Below, in pieces: positions 47,043 to 56,092 of a DNA stretch of 64,000 bases. The translations under genes were made by a program, and so were the position numbers. Under the pieces are notes generated by a model that did no database searches, was not told where the DNA came from, and was given only the letters and a program-made list of their open reading frames with translations. This DNA is from Escherichia phage HP3: the sequence record NC_041919.1. One strand, given 5' to 3'. Numbering within the stretch: position 1 is the stretch's first letter; the number at the start of each line of letters is the position of its first letter.

Positions 47043-48554
47043 TTATAAATTAACTGTTTTCATTACGTAATTAAATTTTTCATCTGCGTAGCGCTGAATA
47101 CGATCAATGCCGTGTTTTAAAAGATAGTTCAAGTGAACATATTTCTTTTTAGTATTAGCAGATTTTGGCTTGACACCACAGTCATCTATGAGGTCCCAGA
47201 CTGTTGCGATTGTTTTAGAACCATGTTTACGTAATACGCGACCTATTGTTTGCAATACAATAATTTTAGATTTAACACCGTGTGCTAAAACAACGTGATG
47301 CAGATTTTTAACTGAAATACCAGTAGAAAATACACCATAACTAGCTACTATAATTATTCCTTTACCGTTTTCAGCTAAGGTTTTCATTATATTGCGGGTT
47401 TCGGTATCAACTTCCCCTGATACGTAATAAACTTTATCGTATTCATTTTTAATTAAATCGAAAATAGCTTTACCGTGCGATACGTGTTTAAACATGACAA
47501 AAGCGTTTTCATCTTTTTGTGCAAGCTTAATAGCTAATTTAGCGATCCATTTATTTCTTTTACTAAGCCCAGTAATAATTTTTATTTCTTCTTGGTAAGT
47601 TTTTCCCTTTAATTTAGTAGTGAACTCATCGGGATAGCGAAGAAAAATACTATTAATTTTTAACTCAGTTACTTGTCCATCTTCCATTAATTTAGAGGTC
47701 GTTACTGGCTTAAATATTTCACCGAACATTCCAACATACTGCATGATATTGGCTTTGCCATCACGTAATGAACCAGACAAACCGAATTTGAACATGCAGT
47801 TATTTAAACCTGATATGATAGATGAAATACTTTTTCCTGTAGCAAGATGACATTCATCATTCATCATCATTCCAAACTGTGAGAACCATTCTTTCGGTTG
47901 TTTTACTACAGTTTGCCATGTACCAACAACGACCGGTGCATCATTTTTATATTTATCATCTTTTGATGCTCCACCACCGATTTTCTTTATCATTGCATGA
48001 CTGAATAAACGATAGTCAACAAAGTCATCAGCCATCTGAGTTGTCAGAGCAGTTGTTGGAACAATAATAAGAATTTTGCCTTCATAATTTTCCAAATAAT
48101 ACCGAGCAAGCAAAGCTTGAATTAAAGATTTACCTGCGGATGTTGGAAGATTAAGAATTCTACGACGATTAACTAATCCTTCGAACACTGCATCTTTTTG
48201 ATACCAATGCGGTTCAATTCTTTTATTTCCTGAATAGATTTCTAATTTAGAAAGCCATTCATCAAAATCTTTTCTTGATAATTCTTCTTTTTCGTTAATC
48301 TGTGGGTCAATCCAGGCTTTATAGCCAAAGTTATCGCAGAACTTTTTAATTTGCCCGACTAAACCGAATGGAAGAAGGCGATTATAATCTAAAAGACGAA
48401 TTCGTCCATCCCAGTGGCCATATTTGTACTTCGGATTAAAACGATACCCATCAGCTTCAAAGCTAAAGAAATCACGGAGTTCATGAAATGTACTTTCTTC
48501 GCAATCAATTCTCACGTGACTAAAATCATAAAAATGTACTTTAATGTCAGTCAT
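47043..48554 (-). CDS. uvsW: UvsW DNA/RNA helicase
   Basis: 503 aa; Walker A PTSAGKS, DEAH-like NDECH; MTDIKVHFYDFSHVRIDCEESTFHELRDFF... matches T4 UvsW. Confidence 0.9.
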   Translation of the reverse strand: MTDIKVHFYDFSHVRIDCEESTFHELRDFFSFEADGYRFNPKYKYGHWDGRIRLLDYNRLLPFGLVGQIKKFCDNFGYKAWIDPQINEKEELSRKDFDEWLSKLEIYSGNKRIEPHWYQKDAVFEGLVNRRRILNLPTSAGKSLIQALLARYYLENYEGKILIIVPTTALTTQMADDFVDYRLFSHAMIKKIGGGASKDDKYKNDAPVVVGTWQTVVKQPKEWFSQFGMMMNDECHLATGKSISSIISGLNNCMFKFGLSGSLRDGKANIMQYVGMFGEIFKPVTTSKLMEDGQVTELKINSIFLRYPDEFTTKLKGKTYQEEIKIITGLSKRNKWIAKLAIKLAQKDENAFVMFKHVSHGKAIFDLIKNEYDKVYYVSGEVDTETRNIMKTLAENGKGIIIVASYGVFSTGISVKNLHHVVLAHGVKSKIIVLQTIGRVLRKHGSKTIATVWDLIDDCGVKPKSANTKKKYVHLNYLLKHGIDRIQRYADEKFNYVMKTVNL

Positions 48555-48583
48555 GTCTAAATACCATGTAATAAATATATCTA

Positions 48584-48591
48584 TATTTATA
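48584..48591 (-). promoter_or_regulatory. late promoter for uvsW
   Basis: TATAAATA on the minus strand 30 nt upstream of the uvsW ATG. Confidence 0.5.
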
Positions 48592-48604: not shown

Positions 48605-49285
48605 ATGATAGATAAAGATTATATTGCAGAGCTGAAGGCTCTTGATGATAATAAAGAAGCTAAAGCTAAATTAGCTGAATATGCTGAACAGTTTGGTATA
48701 AAGGTCAAAAAGAATAAATCTTTTGATAATATCGTTAATGATATTGAAGAAGCTCTCCAGAAGCTCGCTAGTGAACCTATGCCAGAGACTGATGGGTTAT
48801 CTATTAAAGACTTAATTGATGCTGCTGATGCCGCAGACGGATTAAAATATGACGATGAAGAAGTCAATCCAGAGGCAGCACTTCTGATTGATTCTCCGGT
48901 TAAATCTGACATTAAAATTGAAGTAGTAGAAACGGATAAAATTCCTGAAAATACCACTGTTTTAATTGAAGATAATCCTTTTGTTGAAGAAAAATTCGAA
49001 CAGGCTGTAGCTGAGATTATTGAATCTGAAAAGCCGTCTGTATTTACTCTTCCGGAAAACTTTAGTCCGAATCTTCAGCTGATTGGAAAAAATCCAGGAT
49101 TCTGCACTGTTCCTTGGTGGATTTATCAATGGATTGCTGAAACCCCAGATTGGAAATCTCACCCAACTAGTTTTGAACATGCGTCGGCACACCAAACTTT
49201 ATTTAGCTTAATTTACTACATTAATCGTGACGGATCAGTTCTAATTCGTGAAACACGTAATTCTTCTTTCGTAACATTAAAATAA
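48605..49285 (+). CDS. inh: Inh, inhibitor of prohead protease gp21
   Basis: 226 aa, length and position (upstream of hoc) as T4 inh. Confidence 0.7.
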   Translation: MIDKDYIAELKALDDNKEAKAKLAEYAEQFGIKVKKNKSFDNIVNDIEEALQKLASEPMPETDGLSIKDLIDAADAADGLKYDDEEVNPEAALLIDSPVKSDIKIEVVETDKIPENTTVLIEDNPFVEEKFEQAVAEIIESEKPSVFTLPENFSPNLQLIGKNPGFCTVPWWIYQWIAETPDWKSHPTSFEHASAHQTLFSLIYYINRDGSVLIRETRNSSFVTLK

Positions 49286-49294
49286 GGATAACTT

Positions 49295-50713
49295 ATGGCT
49301 TTTACAGTTGATATAACTCCTAAAACACCTACTGGAGTTATAGATCAGACTCAGCAGTTTACTGCTACACCCAGTGGTCAAACTGGAGATGGACCTATTA
49401 CATATGCTTGGACTGTAGACGACGCTCCACAGGAAGAAACGTCAGCAACTTTTAGTTATGTACTAAAAGGACCTGCCGGTCAAAAGACTATTAAAGTAGT
49501 TGCAACCAATCAAGTTGCAGAATCTGAACCTGAAACAGCAGAAATTAGTACAACTATCACAGTTCAAAATAAGACACAAACAACTACTTTAGCTGTAACT
49601 CCTGGTAGCCCTGATGCTGGAGTGATTGGAACTCCAATTGAATTTACCGCTGCCTTAGCTTCACAGCCATCAGGTGCAAACGCTACGTATCAATGGCACG
49701 TTGACGGTTCTCCTGTAGACGAAGCAACTGACGCTACATTCAATTACACTCCTGACACAAGCGGAGTTAAAAAAATCAAGTGTGTAGCTCAAGTAACTGC
49801 GGCAGATTATGACGCAAAAACAGTTACTTCTAATGAAGTATCATTGACTGTTAATAAGAAGACACAGACAACTACGTTAGCCGTAACTCCTGCTAATCCT
49901 GCTGCCGGAGTAATTGGAACAGCCGTTGAATTTACTGCTGCCTTAGCTTCTCAACCTGATGGGGCATCTGCTACGTATCAGTGGTATGTTGACGGTTCTC
50001 TGGTCGATGGAGAAACTACTACTACATTTAACTATACTCCTACCACAGTTGGAGCTAAAACAGTTAAGTGTGTAGCGCAAGTAACTGCAGAAAATTACAA
50101 TGAAAAGGAAGTTACTTCTAATGAAGTATCATTAACAGTTAATAAGAAAACAATGAATCCACAGGTTACATTGACTCCTCCTTCTATTAACGTTCAGCAA
50201 GATGCTTCGGCTACATTTACGGCTAATGTTACGGGTGCTCCAGAAGAAGCACAAATTACTTACTCATGGAAGAAAGATTCTTCTCCTGTAGAAGGGTCAA
50301 CTAACGTATATACTGTCGATACCTCATCTGTTGGAAGTCAAACTATTGAAGTTACTGCTGTCGTTACTGCAACTGATTACGATAGCAAAACTATTACAGC
50401 AGAAGGTCAAGTTCAGGTAACTGATAAAGTTGCTCCAGAACCAGAAGGTGAATTGCCTTATGTTCATCCTCTTCCACATCGTACTTCAGCTTATATCTGG
50501 TGCGGTTGGTGGGTTATGGATGAAATCCAAAAAATGACCGAAGAAGGTAAAGATTGGAAAACTGAAGATCCAGACAGTAAATACTACCTGCATCGTTACA
50601 CTCTTCAGAAGATGATGAAAGACTATCCAGAAGTTGATGTTCAAGAATCACGCAATGGATACATCATTCATAAAACTGCTTTAGAAACTGGTATCATCTA
50701 TACCTATCCATAA
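49295..50713 (+). CDS. hoc: Hoc outer capsid decoration protein with an extra Ig-like domain
   Basis: 472 aa; N-terminus MAFTVDITPKTPTGVIDQTQQFTATPSGQTG and C-terminus ...GYIIHKTALETGIIYTYP match T4 Hoc (376 aa); contains two tandem 96-aa KTQTTTLAVTP...SLTVNK units. Confidence 0.9.
   Translation: MAFTVDITPKTPTGVIDQTQQFTATPSGQTGDGPITYAWTVDDAPQEETSATFSYVLKGPAGQKTIKVVATNQVAESEPETAEISTTITVQNKTQTTTLAVTPGSPDAGVIGTPIEFTAALASQPSGANATYQWHVDGSPVDEATDATFNYTPDTSGVKKIKCVAQVTAADYDAKTVTSNEVSLTVNKKTQTTTLAVTPANPAAGVIGTAVEFTAALASQPDGASATYQWYVDGSLVDGETTTTFNYTPTTVGAKTVKCVAQVTAENYNEKEVTSNEVSLTVNKKTMNPQVTLTPPSINVQQDASATFTANVTGAPEEAQITYSWKKDSSPVEGSTNVYTVDTSSVGSQTIEVTAVVTATDYDSKTITAEGQVQVTDKVAPEPEGELPYVHPLPHRTSAYIWCGWWVMDEIQKMTEEGKDWKTEDPDSKYYLHRYTLQKMMKDYPEVDVQESRNGYIIHKTALETGIIYTYP
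49571..50146 (+). repeat. tandem in-frame duplication of a 288 bp Ig-like-domain coding unit within hoc
   Basis: Unit 1 49571-49858 and unit 2 49859-50146, both beginning AAGACACA(A/G)ACAACTAC and ending GTATCATT(G/A)AC(T/A)GTTAATAAG; about three quarters of residues identical by eye. Confidence 0.85.
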
Positions 50714-50725
50714 TCATAATCATAA

Positions 50726-50745
50726 GGGGCTTCGGCCCCTTTCTT
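50726..50745 (+). terminator. rho-independent terminator after hoc
   Basis: GGGGC-ttcg-GCCCC then TTTCTTCATTTT. Confidence 0.7.
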
Positions 50746-51297: not shown

Positions 51298-52302
51298 ATG
51301 TTTAAAAAGTATAGCAGTCTTGAAAATCATTACAACTCTAAATTTATTGAAAAACTTTATAGCTTGGGATTGACTGGTGGGGAGTGGGTAGCTCGTGAAA
51401 AGATTCACGGCACAAATTTCTCATTGATTATTGAGCGTGATAAAGTAACTTGCGCTAAACGCACTGGTCCTATTCTTCCTGCTGAAGATTTCTTTGGGTA
51501 TGAAATTATTTTGAAGAATTACTCTGATTCCATTAAAGCAGTACAAGATATTATGGAAACTTCAGCGGTTGTATCTTATCAAGTTTTTGGCGAATTCGCT
51601 GGACCTGGCATTCAGAAGAATGTCGATTATGGCGATAAAGATTTTTATGTATTTGACATTATTGTTACTACAGAAAGTGGTGATGTGACTTATGTCGATG
51701 ATTATATGATGGAATCATTCTGCAATACATTTAAATTTAAAATGGCTCCACTTTTAGGTCGCGGTAAATTTGAAGAACTTATTAAATTGCCAAATGATTT
51801 AGATTCTGTCGTCCAGGATTATAATTTTACGGTAGACCATGCTGGATTAGTTGATGCAAATAAATGCGTTTGGAATGCTGAAGTAAAAGGCGAAGTATTT
51901 ACCGCTGAAGGATATGTATTGAAACCTTGTTATCCTTCTTGGATGCCTAATGGCAATCGCGTAGCTATCAAATGCAAGAACTCTAAATTTAGTGAAAAGA
52001 AAAAGTCTGATAAGCCTATTAAAGCTAAAGTTGAACTGTCAGAAGCTGATAACAAATTGGTTGGAATTTTAGCTTGTTACGTTACACTGAACCGAGTAAA
52101 TAACGTTATTTCTAAAATTGGTGAAATTGGTCCAAAAGATTTTGGAAAGGTGATGGGGCTAACTGTTCAAGATATTTTGGAAGAAACTTCTCGTGAAGGT
52201 ATTACTCTAACTCAAGCGGATAATCCTTCTTTGATTAAGAAGGAATTAGTTAAAATGGTACAAGATGTACTTCGTCCGGCTTGGATTGAATTGGTAAGTT
52301 AA
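51298..52302 (+). CDS. rnlB: RNA ligase 2
   Basis: 334 aa; [44 protein letters not shown]... with ligase motif I KIHGTN; matches T4 Rnl2. Confidence 0.9.
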
Positions 52303-55282: not shown

Positions 55283-56092
55283 TTAGAAACGAGATGCGAC
55301 TTTCGCATATACACTTACAATATCTTCTGCACCTTGTGCAGATTTATCTTCTACAGCTTCAGTGACGAAATTCAGTCCGGCTGCTTCAGTATCAGGAGTA
55401 TTTATACTCTCAGTAATAGTGCTTTCATCTTTATTAGATTTCTTCACCATTTCTACGATTGCACTCAATTTACTTGAGAATGCATCTGAATAATCCATAC
55501 CTTCGACCAGAGCAGAGACTTTTTCTTTTTGAGACTCAGTCAGATCTTTAGTACTTTCGCTCAATGCCACTTCACGCTGCACATAATTGATATATGCGTC
55601 ACGCTTATTGAGTTCTTCGAACAGACGAGCTGATTCTTCTTTATGTTCTTGCAGTTCTTCTTCCATTTCAGCTACAACATCAACTGATTCTTCTGGAACA
55701 ACAACGTTGTGTTCAACGAAGAGCTCTTTCAATCCACCAAGCATGGATTCAAACAGTTCGGCTTTGATACCTTTATCTACTGCTAATTTATTTTCAGTGA
55801 GCCATTCTTTTGCAAGATGGTCAAGGAATTTAGAAGCTTGCTCAGCGATTTTCTTCTCAGCTTTTTCTTCTGCTTCTTCTTTATTTTTTTCTACTTCTTC
55901 TTCTGCTTTTTCAGCAATTTTAGCGATATGAGATTCAGCTAATTTAACGGCGTGCTGCTTGACGGTAGCTTCGAATACAGTGCCGAAAGTTTCTTTTGCT
56001 TCCGGAGAAATATTAACTGATTCGAAAATACTATCAAGAGCAACGGAAGCATCAATTTTTTGCGCTTCAGCAATCAGTTGTTCTTTAAGCAT
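55283..56092 (-). CDS. 22: gp22 prohead core scaffold protein
   Basis: 269 aa, same length as T4 gp22; Glu/Lys-rich coiled-coil sequence. Confidence 0.9.
   Translation of the reverse strand: MLKEQLIAEAQKIDASVALDSIFESVNISPEAKETFGTVFEATVKQHAVKLAESHIAKIAEKAEEEVEKNKEEAEEKAEKKIAEQASKFLDHLAKEWLTENKLAVDKGIKAELFESMLGGLKELFVEHNVVVPEESVDVVAEMEEELQEHKEESARLFEELNKRDAYINYVQREVALSESTKDLTESQKEKVSALVEGMDYSDAFSSKLSAIVEMVKKSNKDESTITESINTPDTEAAGLNFVTEAVEDKSAQGAEDIVSVYAKVASRF

Follow-up and report, generated by a model that had tools for sequence, protein, structure and literature searches.

The head outer capsid protein (Hoc) of Escherichia phage HP3 is predicted to consist of five domains, four of them Ig-like and followed by a capsid-binding C-terminal domain. 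The tandem repeat behind this architecture is real but ordinary, being one state of a unit-number polymorphism among relatives of phage T4. It is very probable that the two repeat units diverged long ago as paralogues of Hoc domain 2 and are held by selection, and that the array of each phage is set by recombination; the HP3 protein probably forms a longer fibre. Hoc underlies the 'bacteriophage adherence to mucus' model, and is both the main display scaffold of T4 nanoparticles and a dominant antigen of T4-like therapeutic phages. To our knowledge, nearly all experiments on Hoc have used the three-Ig T4 form. Among sampled full-length Tequatrovirus-like hoc genes, about four in ten specify a fibre with four Ig domains made from other domain-2 paralogues, and the gene of HP3, a candidate for therapy, is one of them. 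This matters for extrapolating mucus-binding, pharmacokinetic or immunogenicity results from T4.

The gene lies within the window, the stretch of 64,000 nucleotides of HP3 DNA (NC_041919.1) that was analysed (Table 1), and is identified as hoc by homology and synteny. A T4-type Hoc is characterised by a single copy bound centrally on every gp23 hexamer of mature heads. T4 Hoc (376 aa; PDB 5vf3_Z, with further structures such as 8t1x), a full-length homologue with a nearly identical C-terminal domain, matches the window ORF in a phmmer search of PDB chains (E = 4e-248), with the match covering aa 1-189 and 190-472. T4 Hoc aligns twice, through its residues 1-189 and then again through 94-376, indicating that T4 domain 2 is the part doubled in the window. 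The window gene shows 100% identity to HP31_0016, a CDS of Escherichia phage HP3.1 (OK275722.1). The ORFs, together with the annotation of the identical HP3.1 stretch, place it in the order typical of the T4-type late region (uvsW, inh, hoc, rnlA, gp24, gp23).

Table 1. Features of the hoc locus in the window; domain assignments and regulatory elements are predictions.
Feature	Position	Strand	Details
Shine-Dalgarno-like AAGGA	49284..49288	+	6 nt before hoc ATG, overlaps inh stop codon; sequence reading
hoc CDS, head outer capsid (decoration) protein	49295..50713	+	472 aa + stop; ORF list
Ig-like domain 1, capsid-distal tip	49295..49570	+	aa 1-92; AlphaFold2 strands 4-91, pLDDT 81-94
Repeat unit 1, type A paralogue of Hoc domain 2	49571..49858	+	aa 93-188; AlphaFold2 beta-sandwich 99-187
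24-nt segment AGTTACTTCTAATGAAGTATCATT, 3' end of unit 1	49822..49845	+	encodes VTSNEVSL; S183-L184 of SLT, T185 next
Repeat unit 2, type C paralogue of Hoc domain 2	49859..50146	+	aa 189-284; Pfam PKD match
Second copy of AGTTACTTCTAATGAAGTATCATT, 3' end of unit 2	50110..50133	+	S279-L280 of SLT, T281 next
Ig-like domain 3	50147..50434	+	aa 285-380; AlphaFold2 strands 290-376
C-terminal capsid-binding domain, not Ig-like	50435..50710	+	aa 381-472; near-identity to T4 Hoc 285-376
Intrinsic-terminator-like hairpin	50724..50741	+	GGGGCTTCGGCCCC stem-loop, T-rich tail; directly after hoc stop

The initial annotation placed a tandem duplication of an Ig-like domain at 49571-50146, an interval that corresponds exactly to aa 93-284 and to two in-frame 96-aa units (KTQTTTLAVTP...NEVSLTVNK). 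It attributed the 472 aa of this Hoc, against 376 in T4, to one further in-frame copy of the 96-aa unit, and the T4 alignment, in which this unit is domain 2, and the comparison of units bear this out. As it also stated, the two 288-nt units are related yet diverged in amino-acid sequence. They share 226 of 288 nt (78.5%) and 73 of 96 aa (76%). When hoc was compared with itself at every lag, the top 288-nt self-match fell at lag 288 and started exactly at 49571, with the same 226 matches; codon-shuffled controls gave 118.7 +/- 2.7 nt matches (n = 200; maximum 134). Tandem Repeats Finder reports a 288-nt period at 49559-50152 (2.1 copies, 78% matches, score 736) and a separate repeat search two 288-nt copies at a spacing of 288 (77% identity), the only large tandem repeat within the window. 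Third codon positions account for 33 of the 62 nucleotide differences. The borders of the units are conserved, with 35 of 37 nt matching at their 3' ends, including the longest in-register exact run that they share (AGTTACTTCTAATGAAGTATCATT, 24 nt), and the SLT motif that overlaps this run is found twice in the protein (aa 183-185 and 279-281). Amino acid differences between the units affect 15 of 45 loop positions and 8 of 51 strand positions (Fisher p = 0.056), an enrichment in loops that is only suggestive.

Structure prediction indicates that each 96-aa unit is one whole Ig-like domain. The AlphaFold2 model contains four confident beta-sandwich domains (aa 1-91, 93-187, 189-283 and 285-376), the borders of which coincide with those of the units, and mean pLDDT over 10-residue blocks is 81-95 for aa 1-370 and 77 for aa 371-380. 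Foldseek matches the model to solved chains with four Ig domains and to the N-terminal fragment of phage RB49 Hoc (PDB 3SHS, E = 3e-10). The latter is likewise a linear Ig-like string, although it has three such domains and just 17% sequence identity to the window Hoc. This agrees with the original proposal of one more Ig-like domain. Among sequence profiles, Pfam PKD (PF00801) scores 39.1 bits against a gathering threshold of 23.5 over two stretches, the better at aa 196-265 in unit 2, and both Ig_3 and I-set match aa 289-373 under their curated cut-offs. Confidence is low for the C-terminal domain because the alignment is shallow, and the model of this domain was left uninterpreted. The parts of the protein evolve at different rates: dN of the C-terminal domain is ~0-0.009 between phages, domain 3 shares 100% nucleotide identity with that of phage EC101, and domain 1 is the fastest-evolving part of hoc (dN/dS 0.23-0.77 between phages).

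Relatives do not uniformly carry a five-domain Hoc, but are polymorphic, with one, two or three units between domains 1 and 3. From 677 matching GenBank phage records, 60 were sampled in even steps, and 52 of these contain a full-length hoc: 27 have one unit (52%), 22 have two (~42%) and two have three (4%). The five-domain form, present in roughly 40% of the sampled full-length Tequatrovirus-like genes, is common. IMG/VR yielded 21 loci, the majority belonging to other genera, which did not suffice for a nucleotide tree of the units, and units were instead clustered from 120 protein-cluster representatives (90% identity; the best 120 of 893 hits) together with the window. They form three stable clusters, A, B and C, with window unit 1 in A and unit 2 in C. 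Among these best 120 of 893 hits, B is the commonest architecture (67), ahead of A-B (24), A (9), A-B-C (5) and C (5), followed by A-C (4), A-B-B (3), B-C (1) and A-x (1). Nearly every ordered combination exists (B, A, C, A-B, A-C, B-C and A-B-C), and the order A, B, C is kept in every array. Protein lengths in the same set are 376 aa (81), 472 aa (29) and 568/570 aa (8). T4 exemplifies B, phage moskry A-B, EC101 A-B-C and the window A-C. Three-unit proteins also occur in phages slur14 and UGKSEcP1/2. Several deposited genomes have a frameshifted or split hoc, among them those of ACG-C40, G29 and T2.

Comparisons of individual units indicate that the duplication is old, rather than an event of HP3's own lineage, since units 1 and 2 differ with dS = 0.70 (dN/dS = 0.21) and each has closer orthologues in other phages. 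The Hoc of EC101 (OL310488, 568 aa) is 99.6% identical in nucleotide sequence to that of the window over domain 3 and the C-terminus; its units 1 and 3 are orthologous to window units 1 and 2, and the window resembles EC101 minus the T4-type B unit in the middle. Window unit 1 is 97.9% identical at the nucleotide level to EC101 unit 1 and 98.3% to the single unit of Yersinia phage PYPS2T, and unit 2 shares 94.4% of its nucleotides with EC101 unit 3. The single T4 unit shares 89.9% with the second unit of EC101, 91% with the second unit of moskry, and 78.5% and 83% with window units 1 and 2, respectively. By these comparisons and the clustering, neither window unit is orthologous to T4 domain 2. 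Synonymous divergence is 0.39-1.16 between paralogous units and 0.04-0.37 between phages for domains 1 and 3 and the C-terminus, and both units are under purifying selection (dN/dS 0.1-0.3).

Unit gain and loss by recombination appears to be still going on, given that PYPS2T has a near-identical backbone with unit A only. In PYPS2T and phage 101112UKE3-1, domain 1 is 100% and 99.6% identical to that of the window, and domain 3 with the C-terminus 99.6% and 100%, respectively, and both have a single A unit at 98.3% identity. The 3' end of the PYPS2T unit agrees with window unit 1 and not unit 2, such that a simple unequal crossover would have to fall in the last ~11 nt. Unit C may have been gained in the HP3 lineage or lost in that of PYPS2T. 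Some single units are chimeric, with an A-like start and a B- or C-like remainder (judged from few diagnostic residues), which is the expected outcome of unequal exchange.

Several other explanations of the repeat were considered. The two units are adjacent, in frame and equal in length, and T4 has only one, as would be expected had a T4-type Hoc recently acquired one new copy by lineage-specific tandem duplication. However, this is highly improbable: a dS of 0.70 is two to three times the value for the domains on either side when the window is compared with T4, each unit is closer to an orthologue elsewhere (94-98% nt) than to its in-gene neighbour, and arrays of two or three units recur in hundreds of independent genomes. 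Tandem repeats are also liable to mis-assembly, through collapse or expansion of a repeat in the HP3.1 assembly. At 78% identity and with exact runs of at most 24 nt, short reads would place both copies unambiguously; moreover, the same 1419-nt gene is found in independently sequenced phages (including HP3.2, U115, JK08, ime09 and G10400) and in metagenome contigs, its ORF stays open, and both units are predicted to fold as complete domains. With copies 22% diverged and many independent genomes carrying the feature, the chance of an assembly artefact is negligible. Programmed hypervariation of the repeat, by a diversity-generating retroelement (DGR) or by slipped-strand phase variation, merits equally little weight. 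In some phages, DGRs act on surface domains of the Ig-like or C-type-lectin kind. However, no adenine bias was detected among the 62 differences (unit 1 bases A 19, C 19, T 12, G 12), for which reason a DGR target was rejected. More than half of these differences affect the third position of a codon. Slippage is not expected between units of such length and divergence, and this is the only large repeat of the window.

A more serious alternative, though still the less probable one, is that the extra domain is a neutral spacer, with unit number drifting by recombination and no effect on adhesion or fitness. Ordered A/B/C subsets occur, and near-identical backbones differ in unit content only. 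Hoc is dispensable in the laboratory (PMC9958956), the gene is broken in deposited genomes such as ACG-C40, G29 and T2, and isolated domain 2 of the T4-type Hoc of phage PNJ-6, which has four domains, does not bind MUC2 (PMC11150434). Against neutrality, both units remain intact and under purifying selection despite their old divergence, and the A-B-C order is always kept. In addition, a second genus, Dhakavirus, has hoc genes of 849, 1134 or 1419 nt, a stepwise series of 282, 377 and 472 aa; this parallel suggests that length variation is maintained and not accidental.

The favoured explanation is that of old, selected domain-2 paralogues reshuffled by recombination. Domain 2 would have been duplicated in tandem long before the sampled Tequatroviruses split, and purifying selection would have retained both units as complete, foldable Ig-like domains. 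The array state of each phage would then be set by a recombination process that is still active, either through exchange between co-infecting phages via the highly conserved flanks and unit borders or through unequal exchange inside the array. The T4 Hoc fibre measures ~185 A, with its N-terminus at the tip (PMC10229621). On the basis of the predicted domains, the HP3 fibre is probably one Ig domain (about 4-5 nm) longer, which would move the variable tip domain further out from the capsid. A second domain-2 surface would also be added, with an NEVSLT motif of the kind reported to contact MUC2/fucose in another Hoc, and weak binding to glycans or cell surfaces could change in its reach and valency. 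A more ambitious reading, which we regard as unlikely, sees a combinatorial cassette system in Hoc domain 2 of Tequatrovirus, paralleled by a D3-like domain of Dhakavirus. Recombination would reshuffle three old, ordered Ig-like paralogues (A, B and C) into fibres differing in length, valency and antigenicity, and selection by mucosal glycans, bacterial surfaces or host antibodies would keep the polymorphism. If so, viruses would have a counterpart to the Periscope proteins of bacteria, and HP3, a therapeutic phage with the A-C form, would be retained in tissue differently from T4 or differ from it in immunogenicity.

Periscope proteins (SasG, Rib, Aap and others) are surface-anchored rods of tandem Ig-like or similar domains (PMC9704523). 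In both these proteins and Hoc, repeat number varies among close relatives and sets how far out a functional domain at the distal end is held, and homologous recombination has been proposed as the mechanism. Hoc shares the difference in repeat number, with one, two or three units within the genus and one unit distinguishing PYPS2T from HP3.1. In contrast, Periscope repeats are near-identical in DNA and vary widely in number, whereas Hoc units are 78% identical, number one to three and are ordered paralogues; at 78.5% nucleotide identity with a longest exact run of 24 nt, neighbouring units lack the very high identity of Periscope repeats. The feature is ordinary domain-number variation in a repeat-built surface protein, and no new kind of system. 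The literature searched describes three-Ig and two-Ig Hoc, and no description of a four-Ig or three-unit Hoc was found in it (Sathaliyawala 2010 and Fokine 2011 were outside its scope). The 'variant' Hoc of phage PNJ-9 (three domains, ~283 aa) resembles the window in showing natural variation in Ig-like domain number (PMC11853027); however, it was described as a domain loss relative to T4, whereas the window represents a gain and belongs to a different genus.

Individual Hoc domains have been linked to glycan binding. S183/L184/T185 in domain 2 of PNJ-9 Hoc are required for binding MUC2, with contact to MUC2/fucose (PMC11853027), and in T4 Hoc one change within domain 3 affects the binding of glycans (PMC9271167). 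In PNJ-6 Hoc, E29 and G33 of domain 1 are critical (PMC11150434); residue 29 of the window Hoc is Q. The extra domain could change adhesion, as the initial annotation suggested, though HP3 was a weaker mucin binder than phage ES17 and did poorly in the gut (PMC7885116), so the domain does not obviously make a strong mucus binder.

With respect to expression, no exact T4 late promoter (TATAAATA) closely precedes inh or hoc on the + strand, and a promoter assignment for these genes was dropped. The exact match nearest to them (48584-48591) belongs to the minus strand and points at uvsW. In phage G29, the site equivalent to the hairpin that follows hoc is annotated as a terminator.

The tandem repeat within hoc lies at 49571-50146 (amino acids 93-284) and comprises two 96-amino acid units that both open with KTQTTTLAVTP and close with NEVSLTVNK. 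It was detected by Tandem Repeats Finder (49559-50152; period 288 nt, 2.1 copies, 78% matches, score 736) and by a second repeat search (two 288-nt copies, 77% identity). The best 288-nt self-match over all lags falls at lag 288 and starts exactly at 49571; its 226 matches of 288 nt far exceed those in codon-shuffled hoc controls (n = 200; 118.7 +/- 2.7, maximum 134), confirming that the repeat is well above chance. There is no other large tandem repeat within the 64-kb window, the sole other one scoring above 60 being a 21-nt repeat at 55863-55902 (1.9 copies, 89% matches, TRF score 66).

The encoded protein matches T4 Hoc (PDB 5vf3 chain Z, 376 aa) with E = 4e-248 in two aligned stretches, with residues 1-189 corresponding to T4 1-189 and residues 190-472 to T4 94-376. 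Because both stretches cover T4 residues 94-189, T4 domain 2 is the part present twice. The coordinates, this alignment and the self-match scan bear out the initial annotation of an extra in-frame 96-aa copy relative to T4, and its description of the units as related yet diverged agrees with their amino acid identity (73 of 96). The coding sequence is 100% identical to that of Escherichia phage HP3.1 (OK275722.1, Tequatrovirus), in which the flanking annotation follows the usual T4 order (uvsW helicase, inh position, hoc, RNA ligase, gp24, gp23). Homology, the C-terminal domain, synteny and a string of Ig-like domains place the protein in the Hoc family; the sequence is already public, labelled Hoc or 'PKD domain protein' among the matches listed.

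Features of the hoc region in the window
Feature	Position	Strand	Product or detail
Helicase ORF (uvsW)	47043..48554	opposite to hoc	503 aa
ORF preceding hoc (inh position)	48605..49285		226 aa
Shine-Dalgarno-like AAGGA	6 nt 5' of hoc ATG		
hoc ORF	49295..50713	+	472 aa
GC-rich hairpin and T-rich tail	immediately 3' of hoc stop		
Two small ORFs	downstream of hoc		
RNA ligase ORF	51298..52302 (downstream of hoc)		
Capsid vertex protein ORF (gp24)	downstream of hoc	-	427 aa

The window contains 19 copies of TATAAATA, the late-promoter motif of T4, where 8.85 +/- 3.1 would be expected. The copy at 48584-48591 (minus strand) faces uvsW; on the plus strand between uvsW and inh there is no exact TATAAATA, only AATAAATA at 48570-48577.

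Each 96-aa unit is predicted to form one complete Ig-like domain. An AlphaFold2 model built from 30 aligned 472-aa sequences (mean pLDDT 83.7; 10-residue block means 81-95 for residues 1-370 and 77 for 371-380) contains four all-beta domains (approximately residues 1-91, 93-187, 189-283 and 285-376), followed by a poorly predicted C-terminal part, and its domain borders coincide with the unit borders. One further Ig-like domain on Hoc, as first proposed, is therefore what the model predicts, in the form of four beta-sandwiches. In Foldseek searches of the PDB, the model matched chains of four tandem Ig-type domains, namely Dscam1 Ig1-4, ICAM-5 D1-D4 and the four-repeat ice-adhesin fragment 4p99. 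Pfam reports PKD above threshold, with the best stretch in unit 2, and other Ig-family matches are weaker.

A two-unit hoc is neither an artefact nor unique to the window phage. The same gene of 1419 nt is present in many independently sequenced phages, including HP3.2, U115, JK08, ime09, G10400 and pSs-1, and on metagenome contigs. In the top 120 protein-cluster representatives, Hoc is 376 aa in 81 clusters, 472 aa in 29, 568 or 570 aa in eight, and 468 and 379 aa in one each. Sampling 60 of 677 matching GenBank phage records at even steps gave 52 full-length genes, with eight partial or distant matches; 27 of the 52 have a single unit, as T4 does (span 1117-1137 nt), 22 have two (1419 or 1425 nt), two have three and one is split (1474 nt). 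EC101, one of the three-unit cases, has a hoc of 1707 nt (568 aa), and the moskry record already labels its units as a repeat_region. Relatives are thus polymorphic, with one, two or three units, and do not all carry the five-domain Hoc considered in the initial annotation.

The two units appear to be old paralogues. They differ with dS = 0.70 and dN = 0.149 (dN/dS = 0.21), with 33 of 62 nucleotide differences at third codon positions, whereas synonymous divergence of the flanking parts among the window phage, T4, EC101 and moskry is 0.04-0.37. Each unit has a far closer relative in other phages than its in-gene neighbour: unit 1 is 97.9% identical at the nucleotide level to EC101 unit 1 and unit 2 is 94.4% identical to EC101 unit 3. 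For the lone unit of T4, identity is 89.9% with EC101 unit 2 and 91.0% with moskry unit 2. When units of the window, three reference phages and the 120 representatives were grouped by average linkage, three stable clusters emerged (types A, B and C), which were also recovered with the representatives and window alone (identity 0.89-0.94 within and 0.77-0.81 between types). Taken together, these relationships indicate that the window gene is not T4 hoc plus a copy, but probably holds two old paralogues, neither of them that of T4. Across the representatives and the window, the architectures from N- to C-terminus are B (67), A-B (24), A (9), A-B-C (5), C (5), A-C (4, including the window), A-B-B (3), B-C (1) and A-x (1), none of which departs from the A, B, C order. 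Among GenBank phage records, about 226 carry an A-type unit at 80% identity or more and 54 a C-type unit at 90% or more, and the window's version of C is found at 99% or more only in HP3.1 and HP3.2. The initial reading of a duplication was essentially right, but the duplication is probably old and the feature common (about four in ten sampled genes).

Comparison with close relatives points to continuing gain and loss of units and to mosaicism. Yersinia phage PYPS2T and phage 101112UKE3-1 match the window at 100% and 99.6% in domain 1 and at 99.6% and 100% in domain 3 plus the C-terminus, and each has one unit, 98.3% identical to window unit 1; the genes are otherwise virtually the same, and 288 nt are cleanly present in one and absent from the others. 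It may reflect either gain of C in the HP3 lineage or its loss in the PYPS2T lineage. The best-conserved DNA of the array is at the unit borders (35 matches in the last 37 nt, with a 24-nt exact run, and 31 in the first 34 nt), and since the 3' end of the PYPS2T unit matches window unit 1, an intragenic crossover would need to fall in the last ~11 nt. T4-type phages are known for high recombination, and for this reason whole-array exchange between co-infecting phages via the conserved flanks is proposed as an equally possible route. In several proteins with one unit, the first third resembles A and the rest resembles B or C, giving a chimeric look that is judged on few diagnostic residues; arrays of A-B or A-C form would be expected to leave this pattern after unequal exchange. 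Identity between EC101 and the window is unequal along the gene (domain 3 plus C-terminus 99.6%, unit A 97.9%, domain 1 only 86.6%), indicating that hoc is a mosaic.

Smaller-scale variation was also observed. At nt 242-253 of its otherwise A-type unit (window 49812-49823), PYPS2T carries a 12-nt patch, GATGCACTAAGC (D-A-L-S), identical to the T4 B-type unit, where window unit 1 has GACGCAAAAACA (D-A-K-T); the patch is probably a micro-mosaic or gene-conversion tract. The next-best GenBank match to the window C unit (49859-50146) after HP3.1 and HP3.2 is Shigella phage sb1 (96.9%), whereas the window flanks (domain 1, domain 3 and C-terminus) share 99.6-100% identity with PYPS2T, U115 and EC101. 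Most of the changes relative to EC101 unit 3 are synonymous (dS 0.159, dN 0.026), suggesting that this unit was acquired by recombination from a donor not yet sampled. UTI-E4 (OL870317) has a single C-type unit (91.7% to window unit 2) and an in-frame 15-nt deletion in domain 1 (hoc alignment columns 203-217, about aa 68-72). A mechanism of the diversity-generating retroelement type was excluded, as differences between the units show no adenine bias.

Hoc of T4 is a flexible fibre of ~185 A that stands with its C-terminal domain on the gp23 hexamer, the N-terminus being the tip (PMC10229621). Hoc is not essential under laboratory conditions and is presumed to adhere weakly to the surfaces of bacteria and mucosa (PMC9958956). 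One substitution in T4 Hoc domain 3 alters glycan binding and mucus persistence (PMC9271167). MUC2 contact lies at E29/G33 of domain 1 in the T4-type Hoc of PNJ-6, domain 2 in isolation not binding (PMC11150434), and at S183, L184 and T185, where domain 2 ends, in the three-domain Hoc of PNJ-9 (PMC11853027). In the window protein, positions 29-33 read QTGDG and SLT occurs twice (aa 183-185 and 279-281). The additional domain would extend the reach of the fibre by roughly 4-5 nm and duplicate a surface that might contact glycans. Amino acid differences between the units tend to be more frequent in loops (15 of 45 positions) than in strands (8 of 51; p = 0.056). It is conceivable that the extra domain is a neutral spacer without effect on adhesion, a minority reading kept credible by HP3 itself, which bound mucin less well than phage ES17 and was inhibited in the gut (PMC7885116), arguing against a strong effect. 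That the ordered A/B/C cassette polymorphism tunes adhesion or antigenicity is an unlikely, speculative extension. Domain 1 (49295-49570) has the highest dN/dS of the gene in comparisons with three loci (L002, L003 and L004; 0.23-0.77, with 0.77 against moskry), compared to about 0-0.04 for the capsid-binding C-terminus; the tip of the fibre is its fastest-evolving part.

Variation in domain number extends to a second genus. In JS98-like phages (Dhakavirus; IMG/VR loci L010-L017 plus GenBank MH051917 (IME341), JS10, Bp7, MX01, WG01 and SP18), hoc is 849, 1134 or 1419 nt (282, 377 or 472 aa). Here the added domains are more like domain 3 than domain 2, indicating an independent polymorphism, and the length series indicates that Hoc proteins in general vary stepwise in their number of Ig domains. 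The window protein is a four-Ig Hoc in a family whose domain number was already known to vary; a literature search that did not include the two founding Hoc papers returned no account of a four-Ig or five-Ig Hoc or of the A/B/C arrangement. Bacterial Periscope proteins (PMC9704523) are the closest functional analogue outside phages, sharing repeat number that varies between close relatives and a rod-with-distal-domain logic, but are defined by high DNA identity between repeats, unlike the 78% between the two hoc units.

Two further observations concern public records. Tequatrovirus hoc genes ~88% identical to that of the window occur in records whose names refer to non-enterobacterial hosts, Pseudomonas phage PsgM02F (OR584013) and one 'Staphylococcus' record, for which the host label or culture purity may be questionable. 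Finally, two or three coding sequences take the place of an intact hoc in the deposited genomes of ACG-C40 (JN986846; 1-nt insertion at alignment column 474), G29 (MK327940; two overlapping coding sequences, span 1474 nt), T2 (LC348380, PV648364; span 1117 nt) and FriedrichMiescher (MZ501066), pointing to either recurrent inactivation of a dispensable gene or sequencing errors.
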